A stretch of DNA of 30,326 nucleotides from Thermoproteota archaeon. Lineage in GTDB: Archaea > Korarchaeota > Korarchaeia > Korarchaeales > Korarchaeaceae. Where the stretch lies: contig JAOZFG010000031.1 in the NCBI GenBank assembly GCA_027491435.1, positions 1 to 30,326 of the forward strand, written 5' to 3'. Made by a program: the position numbers and the translations under genes. Shown here piece after piece: positions 15,013-30,326 of this stretch (position 1 is its first letter; every line of letters starts with the position of its first letter). The notes beneath the pieces were generated by a model that saw nothing but the letters and a program-made list of their open reading frames with translations, searched no databases and was not told the DNA's origin.

Positions 15013-15207
15013 GGTGCTGTCAACTTGAGGCTTGTTATAAAGGGGTTTACCGACTTCATATGAACTGAAAGGGACTTCAACTCCACCAGAGACCATGCTG
15101 TATAGACTAAGCCCTGCTTACTTTTAGGCCTGATGGGCGTGTCAACCAGCTCCTTGTATCGGCCGAATGCTACTGTGTCAGTAGAGGTGGCCTTAAGTTG
15201 CAGCACC
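15013..15207 (+). mobile_element. 195-bp MITE (internally deleted derivative of the IS6-family element)
   Basis: TIRs GGTGCTGTCAACTTGAGG ... CCTTAAGTTGCAGCACC; interior aligns by eye to the first ~150 bp and last ~75 bp of 27117-27814. Confidence 0.8.
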
Positions 15208-27116: not shown

Positions 27117-27814
27117 GGTGCTATCAACTTAAGGTTTGTTATGAGCAGGGGGTCCGCCGATGTCATGGTGGGGAAGAAAGAGAACCCATTAAACTCCGTC
27201 AGGGAGCGGCCCCTGCAGTCATAGCCTATGCCCTTATTTACTTTCAGGCCTAAGCCTGAGGCGTGTCAGCCAGCCAGCGTCAGGAGAAGCTATGAGGGTA
27301 AGGATGGTACGGGTTTAGGCAGAATGAGCCGGATTTGCTGTAAAACAAGGGGGTAGCGTTGTGGACAAGACAGTGGTACTTCACTCAAGCTATTTACTGG
27401 GGTGACGCTGGACCCTGAGAACGTTATCTGACTTGAACTCAGCGATGAGAGGAGCTGGGGCGATGCCAGGGCCTTCCAAGAAGGTCAAGGGGAGGGGCGT
27501 CAGCGGTCATAACGGATGGAGGCCCATGGTACAGGCGTGCTGCAGCCTCCCTAGGCCTTAGAACGTGATGAGTGGTGGCGAGAGGAGCTACGTAGAGAGG
27601 GTCATAGACCATAAGACAGGCTCAGGGGATTCGACGTCTATTCACAGCAAGCGTTACCTGCTAACAAGCTGGGAAGGCTTCACGGCTTCATGTCTTAAAC
27701 TTCGTCAGCCACATGACCCTCAGAAGGGAGCCAGTACCTTGTATCAGGCCCCGAATGCAGAAAATGTTCATGCTGGTGGTTAGAGCGTGGGGGTGACCTT
27801 AAGTTGACAGCAAC
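27117..27814 (+). mobile_element. Degenerate IS6-family insertion sequence (698 bp)
   Basis: TIRs GGTGCTATCAACTTAAGG (27117-27134) and CCTTAAGTTGACAGCAAC (27797-27814), 16/18 identical; frameshifted DDE transposase inside. Confidence 0.85.
27141..27800 (+). pseudogene. IS6-family transposase pseudogene
   Basis: Fragments in shifting frames: VIAYA, SGLSLRRVS, VRRSYE, VVDKTVV, LDPE, LSDERSWGDARAF, VITDGGPWYRRAAASLGL, GGERSYVER, DRLRGFDVY. Boundaries approximate. Confidence 0.85.
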
Positions 27815-27815
27815 G

Positions 27816-28198
27816 TCGAAAGATAGTGTAATACTGGGTTTGCTGGAAAAGATGAGCTACAAGGTGTTCTTCCCGAGAGCTGGCATAATAGAAGTTGTAG
27901 CAGTATTGAAGCGGAGTGGCATGACGAGAGAGTATTTGCTAAAGGTCATGGAGAGTCTAAACAACCTTTTATAGTTGTCGATGAGAACGTGATACACGAG
28001 AAGGCTCTTGAAGTAGCATTAACAACGGCCCCATCCGGCTTTGACACCTACTTCCTCGCGCTAGCACTCCTCACAGACTCTCTACTCGTAACCGACGACA
28101 AGGGCATGGCAGAGCAAGCCAGGAGACTAAAGCTTAACGTGATCTTTCCTACCAGACATCATGATCAAGGTTGGTGCTTGAGAGGGAGCCGAGATTAA
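27816..28198 (+). pseudogene. PIN-domain toxin pseudogene, 5'-truncated at the IS end and frameshifted near 27965
   Basis: One frame reads YKVFFPRAGIIEVVAVLKR; the other reads IVVDENVIHEKALEVA...GFDTYFLALA...LVTDDKGM. The N-terminal D motif is missing. Confidence 0.75.
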
Positions 28199-28231: not shown

Positions 28232-28636
28232 TTACACAATGTCGTCTAGGCTTGCCACCTTTATAATACTACTTGCGGCTTGAAACAGCTTTTGATCTTC
28301 TGTTACAAGCATTAGCTTGTGTTTCCTGGCAAGTGCTATGTATGATGCATCATAGGCTGTCACTCCCTTGGAGGTCGCTATTTGAAGGATATCGTGTTCT
28401 AGGCCACTAGGCTCTAATATAACCATGTTCCGGACCAGCTCCGTGAAATCGCTAATCAGAGAAATTGCTTCTTCAAGGCTAAGCCTGCGTAGCAGGTGGG
28501 TCTCTTTCCAAAACGCGTTTAAAATCTCGTATACTGTGAGCCACTGTAATGCTTGTCCACCCAACGGCACCAGCTTAGCTTCTTTAAATGCCTTGACGAG
28601 GCTGGATGCATCAATCAAGTAAACAGGCTTCATCAT
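28232..28636 (-). CDS. vapC: PIN-domain toxin (VapC)
   Basis: YLIDASS, YEILNAFWK, TAYDASYIALA, LVTED. Confidence 0.92.
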   Translation of the reverse strand: MMKPVYLIDASSLVKAFKEAKLVPLGGQALQWLTVYEILNAFWKETHLLRRLSLEEAISLISDFTELVRNMVILEPSGLEHDILQIATSKGVTAYDASYIALARKHKLMLVTEDQKLFQAASSIIKVASLDDIV

Positions 28637-28863
28637 CTTGCCTCCCTATCCTCGCGGATTAGCCTTACTATCTCGTCAATTTCTATCTTGGCAAGCGTGT
28701 TGTGCTTCTTTTTCAGCTTCTCCTCTAAATTAACCAGTTTACGACGGCGCACTTCCTCCTCAAGAGCCCTTCTTATCAGCTCTGAAACATTAATATTTAG
28801 CCGCCTAGCCTCCTCTAAAAGCTCCCTCCTAACCTTGGCGGAAACAGTTACATACCTACCCAT
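28633..28863 (-). CDS. vapB: RHH antitoxin (VapB/CcdA-like)
   Basis: YVTVSAKV..EL..EARRLNINVSELIRRALEEEV...IREDRE; ATGA overlap with the toxin gene. Confidence 0.88.
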   Translation of the reverse strand: MGRYVTVSAKVRRELLEEARRLNINVSELIRRALEEEVRRRKLVNLEEKLKKKHNTLAKIEIDEIVRLIREDREAR

Positions 28864-28978: not shown

Positions 28979-29030
28979 GGTGGACCAGCCGGGATTAGTG
29001 GACCCGGGGCCCCTGCGGCTCCGAAGGCCG
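28979..29030 (-). pseudogene. Degenerate tRNA-Arg(TCG) 3'-half relic (att-like)
   Basis: Reverse complement CGGC-CT-TCG-GA-GCCG-CAGGGG-CCCCGGGTCCACTAATCCCGG-CTGGTCCACC: anticodon arm, distorted T-arm, acceptor 3' strand. No 5' half. Confidence 0.65.
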
Positions 29031-29197
29031 GGATATAAAAAAACAAAGTTTCCAGCAGAAACCATAAAAATGGAAACATGCTTCACGATTGATTATCGTT
29101 AGGGGTTTTTCAATGTAGATAATCTGGAAACACTCATCCTAGGAAAAGGCTAATTGGTTTGCGGGGCTATATTTGACGTGGGTGTAGGTATTGTCTA
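28979..29197 (+). repeat. Repeat unit copy A (tRNA relic + GGAAAC motifs + shared promoter/leader)
   Basis: Colinear with 29978-30189; exact shared blocks CTAGGAAAAGGCTAATTGGTT and the 32-mer at 29166-29197. Confidence 0.9.
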
Positions 29198-29403
29198 AAG
29201 CCGTAAGGGTGCGGTATGAGAAGGGTGTGCTTAAGCCCTTAGAGCCCGTGGACCTCCGAGAGGGAGAGGAGAGGATTGCAGTGCTCGTCCCGGTTGGGGA
29301 GGAGAGGAGGCAGATTCTCCGGAAATATCGAGGAATACTGGGTAAGACCACCCAGGAGGAGATGGAGGAGTTGCTAGCCGAGGCGGAGTGGGAGCCTCTA
29401 TGA
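29191..29403 (+). CDS. AF2212/DUF104-like antitoxin
   Basis: MSKAVRVRYEKGVLKPLEPVDLREGEE signature; ATGA overlap with the PIN gene. Confidence 0.88.
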   Translation: MSKAVRVRYEKGVLKPLEPVDLREGEERIAVLVPVGEERRQILRKYRGILGKTTQEEMEELLAEAEWEPL

Positions 29404-29858
29404 AGGAATACGTTTTCGTAGACTCTAACGTGTTCATCCAACTTCTCTATGAGGGTGCTCGGACCCCTGAGGCAGAAGAGCTCTTGGACAAATATCCACT
29501 ACTAGCAACAAGTATCGGAGTTGTAGATGAAGTACTCCACTTCATTGTAAGAAAAGAGGCAATGAATAAGTATGGTATAAGGAGATCTTACGACCTAAGA
29601 AAGCTTGTTAGGAGCAAAGGCGTAAGGTTTGCAAAAGAAAGCATAAACAATTTCGTCTCACTACTAAAAGAACTGTATGTAAAAGTAGTAGCAGATGTCG
29701 AGGCCCAGCCAAGCCGAATAGTCACCATCATGGACAACTATAGACTATCACCCAGAGACGCCATCATAGCACTGACATGCAGACACTACAGTATCGACAC
29801 TATCCTAACGTTTGACGAGGACTTCAAGCGAGTTCCATGGCTTAAAGTAGTTCCCTAG
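29400..29858 (+). CDS. vapC: PIN-domain toxin (VapC)
   Basis: VFVDSNVF, DEV, SPRDAIIALTC, ILTFDEDFKRVP; ATG 29400. Confidence 0.92.
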   Translation: MKEYVFVDSNVFIQLLYEGARTPEAEELLDKYPLLATSIGVVDEVLHFIVRKEAMNKYGIRRSYDLRKLVRSKGVRFAKESINNFVSLLKELYVKVVADVEAQPSRIVTIMDNYRLSPRDAIIALTCRHYSIDTILTFDEDFKRVPWLKVVP

Positions 29859-29977
29859 CCTGCCAGGATTATCAACCGCGGCTATCCCGGGTGAAGGGGA
29901 AACAAACATTGTACCAGCAACAGAATCCCTGGGTTAATACTCTTCTCTTCCAGAGAAATATATATAGGGTATATAAG

Positions 29978-30024
29978 TGGCGGGCCCGCCGGGATTAGGA
30001 ACCGGGACCTCCGGCTCCGGAGGC
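29978..30024 (-). pseudogene. tRNA-Arg(CCG) 3'-half relic ending in CCA (att-like)
   Basis: Reverse complement GCCT-CCG-GAGCCGGAGGTCCCGGTTCCTAATCCCGGCGGGCCCG-CCA. T-loop altered; no D-arm or 5' acceptor strand. Confidence 0.8.
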
Positions 30025-30189
30025 ACGGGGTATATAAGCAGTGCTTCCAGAAGAAACCATCAGTTGGAAACATTTTCCATAAATGGTTATCTCTTAGGGA
30101 TATCATTGTTGATAATCTGGAAACATCCTGCTAGGAAAAGGCTAATTGGTTGGTGGAGCTATATTTGACGTGGGTGTAGGTATTGTCTA
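29978..30189 (+). repeat. Repeat unit copy B
   Basis: Colinear with 28979-29197; exact 32-mer at 30158-30189. Confidence 0.9.
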
Positions 30190-30326
30190 GGGTTGTTAGG
30201 GTGAGGTATGAGACGGGCGTATTGCGGCCTCTCGATGATGTTGAGTTTGGAGAGGGGGAAGAGTTAGAGGTCATAATTGTTCGAAGGAATTTTAGGGGAT
30301 TCCGGGAGGAGGCAGGCAGATATAAG
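30183..30326 (+). CDS. Second AF2212/DUF104-like antitoxin (partial, runs off the window; absent from the ORF track)
   Basis: TTG 30183: MSRVVRVRYETGVLRPLDDVEFGEGEELEVIIVRRNFRGFREEAGRYK. Confidence 0.85.
   Translation, partial: MSRVVRVRYETGVLRPLDDVEFGEGEELEVIIVRRNFRGFREEAGRYK

Follow-up and report, generated by a model that had tools for sequence, protein, structure and literature searches.

Tandem toxin-antitoxin cassettes bounded by tRNA-Arg 3' halves at a contig end of a Thermoproteota archaeon: probable integrase-less integrative elements

The DNA analysed here, called the window below, is the whole of contig C31 (30,326 bp) of a Thermoproteota archaeon assembly, G000 (GCA_027491435.1; 43 contigs, 1.64 Mb, 99.5% complete by markers). 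Two ~1-kb cassettes at its right-hand end are probably the first of a tandem array of integrative elements that lack an integrase and have tRNA-Arg genes as their target. A cassette is made of a ~50-bp core, which is the 3' half of a tRNA-Arg gene (TCG or CCG), a ~100-bp non-coding arm, a cargo with its own promoter and a spacer of ~100-130 bp; in the window the cargo consists of toxin-antitoxin (TA) genes. Comparison with other loci shows that such arrays adjoin an intact tRNA-Arg gene on its 3' side and that a direct repeat of the tRNA half flanks every cassette. In its anatomy, this arrangement corresponds to the classical picture of an element integrated in the 3' half of a tRNA gene.

Two modules share a tRNA-derived unit

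The initial annotation of the window had pointed to a ~220-bp unit recurring ~1.0 kb apart (28979-29197 and 29978-30189). A blastn search of the whole 1.64-Mb assembly recovered both copies and extended them: unit A (28979-29228) and unit B (29979-30220) share 78.6% identity over 252 columns with an E value of 2.8e-47, a likeness far beyond chance, and they are the only full units in the assembly. The order of parts that had been described up to the TTG start of a DUF104 antitoxin was likewise recovered from the sequence and from PF01954 matches. Each unit runs from a minus-strand tRNA 3' half through a TATAAA-like box, GTTTCCAG..GAAACCAT, TGGAAAC and G(A/G)TTATC..GATAATCTGGAAACA to a promoter/leader and the TTG start.

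The minus-strand pieces extend from the 5' strand of the anticodon stem through the acceptor end, and their loops, TCG in A and CCG in B, are those of Arg. Core A (28979-29030, minus strand; nhmmer 40 bits) is the 3' half of a tRNA-Arg(TCG) gene from the anticodon stem-loop to the acceptor end, and core B (29978-30025, minus strand; 44.8 bits) is that of a tRNA-Arg(CCG) gene; the T-loops of both are aberrant. As expected of halves, neither ARAGORN nor Rfam calls a tRNA gene in the window, and Rfam found nothing relevant there at the gathering threshold and at E<=5. Arm A (29031-29133, plus strand; 77.8 bits with model R1) consists of the TATAAA-like box, GTTTCCAG..GAAACCAT, TGGAAAC, GATTATC..GATAATC and CTGGAAACA. 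Arm B (30026-30125, plus strand) scores 87.3 bits with the same model and was also placed by alignment. Promoter/leader A (29134-29190, plus strand) holds a AAGGCTAATTGG box and a TATA-like GCTATATTTGAC ~20 nt upstream of the TTG, from which we infer a leaderless transcript. It matches promoter/leader B (30126-30182, plus strand, placed by alignment with unit A) at 52 of 57 positions, in agreement with the near-identity claimed for the two.

Antitoxin A (29191-29403, plus strand; 70 aa) is DUF104/AF2212-like (COG2880; PF01954, 3.9e-21) and lies directly upstream of a PIN-domain (VapC-like) toxin of 152 aa, whose ATG at 29400 makes the two genes overlap at 29400-29403 (toxin A, 29400-29858, plus strand; PF01850, 2.2e-17). 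Both scores, 75.7 bits for PF01954 (cut-off 21.6) and 64.2 bits for PF01850 (cut-off 23.6), place cassette A in the DUF104-PIN family of type II TA systems. The spacer that ends cassette A (29859-29977, plus strand) was delimited by the recurrence across loci of its closing A/T-rich GGGTAT-type motif, which precedes the cores in many loci and is lacking before the outermost cores examined. Of antitoxin B (30183-30326, plus strand; PF01954, 1.9e-14) the window holds the first 48 codons, as the contig ends 144 nt inside the gene; a search of the assembly for the rest of cassette B found nothing. The window array is therefore not traceable to any tRNA. The TA genes of the window are intact and would presumably act as ordinary VapBC-like modules.

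Two adjacent copies ~1 kb apart, with no third in the assembly, would also result if a ~1-kb segment had simply been duplicated in tandem within this genome, selection having preserved the promoter and the tRNA piece being a passenger. Such a duplication predicts uniform divergence and invariant cassette content, the pattern that the initial annotation had named as refuting its proposal. What we observed is uneven divergence between A and B, with 74% identity in the core, 71% in the arm, 91% in the promoter/leader and 61% in the first 48 codons. The two antitoxins share 19 of 48 residues ungapped, or 48% in a gapped alignment, whereas each is 80-88% identical to antitoxins at other loci. The A-B pair recurs in locus L120, and A and B also occur separately with other neighbours. 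A local duplication is therefore highly improbable.

Rows of cassettes end at intact tRNA-Arg genes

Among 40 relatives searched by blastn, only the congener G002 carries the unit. Its three copies have differing neighbours and adjoin additional tRNA-half copies with a different flank, and the window and G002:C1 showed no synteny beyond the units. A scan of species-representative genomes with a loose pattern returned at least 120 matches, mostly due to chance; among the matches listed, at least five loci hold units (L029, L042, L047, L057 and L120), from records labelled as Desulfurococcales, Acidilobaceae, Staphylothermus and Pyrodictiaceae metagenome-assembled genomes (MAGs). L112 was rejected, having matched through its tRNA gene only. 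A scan of metagenome contigs found units in 29 of 120 stretches. With L260 left out as identical to part of G002, the totals are 36 loci, 58 units and 68 tRNA-half cores. The median spacing of successive modules is 999 bp (n=45), 31 of the spacings falling within 796-1051 bp. Parts of the unit were also matched in eight further genomes, among the matches listed for 31 relatives of the Staphylothermus-labelled MAG G052.

More units and an intact tRNA-Arg gene had been predicted on the right, the side of the tRNA 5' end, and both were found there in other genomes and metagenome contigs. Rfam confirms an intact tRNA-Arg gene at the end of the row in seven loci (TCG in L047, L209, L184 and L172; CCG in L170, L223 and L145), and in all seven the row lies on the 3' side of the tRNA with its cores oriented as the gene. 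By ARAGORN only, a tRNA-Arg gene also ends the rows of L285, L286 and L287. L285, on a 1.39-Mb contig, reads SRP54 gene, four DUF104-PIN cassettes, tRNA-Arg(TCG), and the locus of another relative reads tRNA-Arg(TCG), four cassettes, DUF433-DUF5615 pair, its tRNA too being called by ARAGORN only. The simplest loci are L047 and L209. Each has a single ~1-kb cassette with the tRNA gene on one side and, on the other, ~48-60 nt of the tRNA 3' half as a direct repeat; identity extends in L209 from the anticodon loop to at least 12 nt past the tRNA 3' end. The hallmark of a tRNA-integrated element, a flanking direct repeat with one copy inside the intact tRNA, is thus present in related loci, and the window shows two cores followed by the contig end.

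In the reading that we favour, cassettes would enter serially, the core of each recombining site-specifically with the 3' half of the tRNA gene, with the anticodon stem-loop as the likeliest crossover region. The recombinase would be supplied in trans, either as a virus or plasmid integrase or as a host Xer-type enzyme. Every new insertion would shift the older cassettes farther from the tRNA, and the TA cargo would afterwards stabilise the cassette. Homologous recombination between cores probably reshuffles the arrays as well.

Several tRNA features around the arrays are irregular. ARAGORN calls in L222 and L057 were discarded as unconfirmed by Rfam, and a call in L288 sits mid-array. At the array end of L057 (5026-5104), the reverse complement of a core end (acceptor/T-stem) is fused to a sense tRNA-Arg 3' half, which looks like a chimeric junction from an inversion between oppositely oriented cores. 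In L277 (G053:C7, 8700-9760), one cassette adjoins a decayed tRNA-Arg gene with a mutated 5' half, and the upstream core has lost its interior, TGG being joined almost directly to the arm; arrays persist as relics in large chromosomal contigs too. L280 (G057:C138, 3866-3955) is a tRNA-Arg(TCG) gene with a 15-nt intron just after the anticodon and no cassette behind it. Over 2.4 kb, its left flank shares 83% identity with the left flank of L047, a locus that does bear a cassette; this lone example agrees with the idea that introns shield tRNA genes from integration. At C41:60727-60800 of G000, a tRNA with anticodon CGG (Pro; Rfam 66.6 bits) was missed by ARAGORN with the intron option, so that absences by ARAGORN in these archaeal loci need an Rfam check.

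Cassettes are modular

The C-terminal half of the antitoxin varies and divides the cassettes into about ten types. Antitoxin A shares 80-84% identity with L226_1349, L120_1776 and L222_6920 and far less with its neighbour B, and the PIN toxin of cassette A is 74% identical to that of L222_6920. Antitoxin B is 85-88% identical to L013_9950 (G002) and L172_1619. Cassette number and order vary among relatives, as the initial annotation had asked of a mobile array: A-B in the window and L120, D-A in L226, A-D in L222, G-B-tRNA in L172, B-C in L057 and E-D in L143. A type E cassette adjoins tRNA-Arg(TCG) in L209 and tRNA-Arg(CCG) in L145. High-identity matches between loci end at core edges. The match of L170 with L257 (95.9% identity) starts at the outer core edge, and that of L013 with L172 (90.5%) stops at the inner core edge, beyond which one locus has a different cassette and the other the rest of the tRNA. 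Other cargo also lies between the same cores, namely HicAB, MNT-HEPN, TumE, DUF433-DUF5615, MazE-PIN and UPF0175. These cassettes bring three further arm types at the same position, each with an A/T-rich box and, after it, short inverted and direct repeats peculiar to that type.

Much of this could also stem from one ancient integration into tRNA-Arg, after which the arrays would have grown and been shuffled by unequal crossing-over, segmental duplication and homologous exchange over ~50-150 bp of core plus arm, including exchange after DNA uptake, and site-specific events would not have recurred. The conservation of core plus arm is sufficient as homology, core-edge breakpoints fit homologous exchange too, and no integrase was found anywhere searched. 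Duplication of segments is seen inside G002, where L013:13100-13400 resembles L014:6700-7000 by eye, and the A-B order is shared with L120. Passages of PMC2701414 ascribe the DUF104-PIN clusters of Archaeoglobus fulgidus to tandem duplication. Against this history, the same cores enclose arms of four unrelated types and cargo that is likewise unrelated and lies in either orientation, a variety that duplication of one module cannot yield. Neighbours in an array are not sisters, one cassette type occurs at two different tRNA-Arg genes, and the cassettes are present in two phyla. We therefore regard growth by homologous processes after a single integration as unlikely. The serial stacking of TA cassettes at tRNA-derived sites, which had been proposed from the window, is supported by the comparison of loci, with the recombination itself inferred from anatomy.

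The arm is conserved more strongly than the cargo

In alignments of 51 and 45 copies, the arm shows 12 invariant and 26 nearly invariant columns of 104, a conservation above that of both the tRNA-derived core and the cargo. RNAalifold predicted no consensus pair for the unit (0 pairs; 51 copies, RNA parameters, one strand only). Strong conservation combined with no consensus structure suggests that the arm most likely serves as a group of binding sites for proteins. The DUF104 antitoxin could bind at the three TGGAAAC copies. The mini-origin recognition box (mini-ORB) is a 13-bp TTCC..GAA dyad that is bound by Orc1/Cdc6 and clustered at the origin. A passage of PMC1904270 gives 'TTCCAGTGGAACT' as the mini-ORB sequence of Pyrococcus; the first dyad of the arm (consensus TTCCAGnGGAAAC) is similar to it, with TTCC and GAA conserved. 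The window copies of this dyad are TTCCAGCAGAAAC and TTCCAGAAGAAAC, and the exact pattern was not found elsewhere in G000. On these features the arm could be an accessory site for recombination, an operator or an origin-like element.

Core plus arm can be separated from the cargo. Thirteen of 58 type-1 units are half-units that end directly after CTGGAAACA. In L196 (3172-5949) and L226 (2335-3473), such half-units of core and arm only are followed by minus-strand GmrSD-like restriction genes. Conversely, G000 holds promoter-plus-TA modules without an arm at C36:43901-43968 and C17:454-527. Half-units with unrelated cargo and armless promoter-TA modules together indicate that core plus arm forms a backbone separable from its cargo, and the GmrSD-like genes indicate that this backbone carries defence cargo besides TA pairs.

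Conservation of the arm above the cargo might instead mean that the tRNA-like pieces and arms have a function of their own and no role in mobility, as 3' halves of split tRNAs, as small RNAs or as an operator array for the AbrB-like DUF104 protein. A TATA-like box adjoins the core on both strands, and the DUF104 N-terminus is conserved across cassette types, COG2880 being predicted as DNA-binding in passages of PMC2701414. Desulfurococcales have split tRNA halves with their own promoters, according to passages of PMC3218864, which also mention six partial tRNA fragments in Aeropyrum pernix. Unlike a genome that depends on a split tRNA 3'-half gene, G000 has intact tRNA-Arg genes for TCG, CCG, GCG and CCT, which makes the TCG and CCG halves superfluous, and several of the half copies are damaged: T-loops are non-canonical in 21 of 61 fragment cores vs none of seven intact genes. 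The lack of a consensus RNA structure, the half-units that stop after the arm and in some cases continue into GmrSD-like or other cargo, the armless DUF104-PIN module on C36, and the other arm types that accompany cargo on the opposite strand argue further against such a function, and we consider it improbable as the whole explanation. An operator role of the type-1 arm could coexist with the integrative-cassette reading.

Search for a recombinase and for movement

That the window holds no integrase, as the initial annotation had stated, agrees with the lack of PF00589 and PF16795 matches in its cassettes. The tyrosine recombinase that it had hoped to find by the array was near none of the arrays, there being no PF00589 or PF16795 match in 314 open reading frames (ORFs) around them. 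G000 has one tyrosine recombinase, of 261-280 aa and thus Xer-sized; G002 has one and a 113-aa fragment, far from its arrays. PF16795 has no match in G000 or G002. With no recombinase found, site-specific recombination is deduced from anatomy. The flanks of array-bearing loci show no synteny with the tRNA-Arg loci of G000, so that no empty-site comparison is available for this genome.

Mobile carriers and junctions were also sought. Collections of viral contigs, phages and plasmids yielded no virus or plasmid that carries core and arm together. Scans of viral contigs with the arm pattern and the core-junction pattern returned five stretches and one stretch, respectively, none with a unit or core by nhmmer, and cassette A was unmatched in the phage and plasmid collections. 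Three sequencing runs, which contain 0.05-0.07 of the words and were aligned at 85% likeness, showed no circular or empty-site junction; they contain only relatives at 85-95%, in short contigs. Apparent 'go-back' and 'skip' joints in these runs fall within the mutually similar cores, arms and promoters and were dismissed as alignment ambiguities. A 475-nt X2 contig (depth 5), in which the sequence left of core A up to 28958 is joined to a core aligning at 29981, was rejected as evidence of a form lacking cassette A, being too short and divergent.

These missing recombinases, carriers and junctions weigh against integration by site-specific recombination, and further points join them. The window array is not seen adjoining a tRNA. 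Cores in arrays at tRNA-Arg(CCG) often bear a TCG loop, which is awkward for an overlap at the anticodon loop. Given the share of non-canonical T-loops among the fragments, many copies may no longer be active. The binning and labels of several array contigs, short ones from MAGs or metagenomes, are uncertain. The A-B order of the window and L120, shared at 72.6% identity, fits slow vertical descent equally well.

A more far-reaching reading joins these elements into a living integron-like capture platform at tRNA-Arg in hyperthermophilic archaea. Here ~1-kb cassettes with a tRNA-half site and an arm with an ORB-like dyad would excise as circles, reinsert by the tRNA through a host recombinase (Xer-type or unrecognised) and cross phyla, spreading TA and defence genes, with introns in the anticodon loop protecting the tRNA. 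We offer it tentatively and would not expect it to hold in full.

The array in this genome is probably a relic

The cores of the window fit the tRNA-Arg genes of another lineage better than those of their own genome. Core A matches the intact tRNA-Arg(TCG) of array-bearing loci at 42 of 52 positions vs 36 of 49 for that of G000, and core B matches the tRNA-Arg(CCG) of L170/L145 at 44 of 47 vs 35 of 44. The T-arms are GGGGG/CCCCC in the tRNA-Arg genes of G000 and CCGGG/CCCGG in the window cores. The arm model matches only in G000 and G002, that is in 2 of 38 genomes of the order, 2 of 40 of the class and 2 of 32 of the phylum, the last set comprising genomes with completeness >=80%. The complete array-bearing chromosome G083 is not in the list of genomes of this phylum. 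The better fit to foreign tRNA-Arg genes, the rarity of the arm in the phylum and the damaged T-loops together point to import and decay. The likeliest history is that the window array was imported horizontally as a piece and that its sites then decayed with the TA genes intact; it is probably an inactive relic.

Relation to known systems

The cassettes share with SSV1-/pNOB8-type elements the 3' part of a tRNA gene as target and the duplication of the tRNA half as a direct repeat at both ends. The target of SSV1 is tRNA-Arg. Unlike these elements, the cassettes are only ~1 kb long, hold no integrase or integrase fragment, line up in rows that reach at least 4-5 units and have a conserved non-coding arm adjoining the core. 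Passages of PMC8371274 describe the SSV1 integrase as targeting a tRNA gene with strand exchanges that border the anticodon loop, and report tandem integration and integrase loss in archaea.

Rows of small cassettes, each with its own site and often with TA cargo, also recall integrons. Integron cassettes are small, single-function units with their own recombination site and one chromosomal insertion point, and TA cargo is common among them. No intI, attI or Pc was found here, and the rows are headed by tRNA-Arg with no adjacent tyrosine recombinase. The attC site is a hairpin conserved in structure and variable in sequence, whereas core and arm are conserved in sequence with no consensus pairs. 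The present site is tRNA-derived, the cassettes have their own promoters, and the newest cassette would adjoin the tRNA gene. With cis-mobilizable elements (CIMEs) the cassettes have in common att-like boundaries and the lack of recombination or transfer genes. CIMEs are att-bounded, devoid of recombination genes, thought to depend on an integrase in trans and able to build composite islands; they have been described in bacteria as decayed integrative and conjugative or integrative and mobilizable elements of several kb. The elements described here, in contrast, are archaeal mini-cassettes that form one uniform family, with TA genes as cargo and an arm of their own. Integrative mobile elements exploiting Xer (IMEXs) are integrase-less too, form tandem arrays by means of the host Xer tyrosine recombinase and insert at dif. 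The cassettes resemble them in being integrase-less and arrayed, in a genome with only an Xer-sized recombinase, and differ from them in lying at tRNA genes.

Passages of PMC2701414 predict that DUF104 and PIN form a TA system whose antitoxin belongs to the AbrB superfamily, and they make no link between DUF104-PIN clusters and tRNA halves. A full-text literature search found no description of TA cassette arrays bounded by tRNA halves, nor did passages of PMC8371274, PMC9897764, PMC3218864 and PMC2701414 contain one. Site-specific integration at tRNA genes and integron arrays are already known; what appears to be new is a uniform class of integrase-less ~1-kb cassettes, with a tRNA-derived site and an arm, stacked at tRNA-Arg. 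If active, these cassettes would mean that gene-cassette capture has been solved a second time and independently, and they would allow TA and defence genes to spread among hyperthermophiles of different phyla. They would further offer a test bed for tRNA genes as ancestral recombinase targets and for tRNA introns or splitting as protection against integration. In practice, the arrays break assemblies, and the tRNA-half pseudogenes left behind confuse tRNA annotation.

Left-hand neighbours in the window

Up to ~26.9 kb, the window carries lysine/arginine-type biosynthesis genes. To the right follow, in order, a ~690-nt non-coding repeat, a broken PIN gene, a minus-strand ribbon-helix-helix (RHH)-PIN pair and modules A and B. 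The initial annotation had noted further TA genes just to the left of the modules, and these proved to be the RHH-PIN pair at 28232-28863. Its RHH/CcdA-like antitoxin (28633-28863, minus strand) matches PF07362 (1.6e-06) and PF01402 (2.3e-04), its PIN toxin (28232-28636, minus strand) matches PF01850 (5.2e-07), and the pair is without a tRNA-half core. Two short ORFs of 56 and 69 aa at 27804-28198 have no Pfam match. The second is 30-36% identical by tblastx to PIN genes of B-type cassettes, and the stretch is probably a broken PIN gene adjoining the ~690-nt repeat.

The ~690-nt repeat (27117-27812, plus strand) has a 19-bp inverted repeat as its ends and a minimum free energy z-score of -1.2, and matches nothing in Rfam. 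A second trace, a left end, lies at ~15013-15038. G000 holds 18 right and 16 left ends at 70-90% identity, many of them at contig ends, with differing flanks and no obvious target duplication. Among 41 genomes, the repeat is multi-copy only in G000 and G020. Two copies meet type-1 arm pieces exactly at CTGGA (C17:530 and C24:370). A ~75-nt stretch within the repeat (repeat positions 499-576, window 27615-27692), itself without an Rfam match, resembles single intergenic sites at 81-85% in G009:C13, in G020:C10 and at G002:C4:520142-520221, where the copy adjoins a PIN gene.

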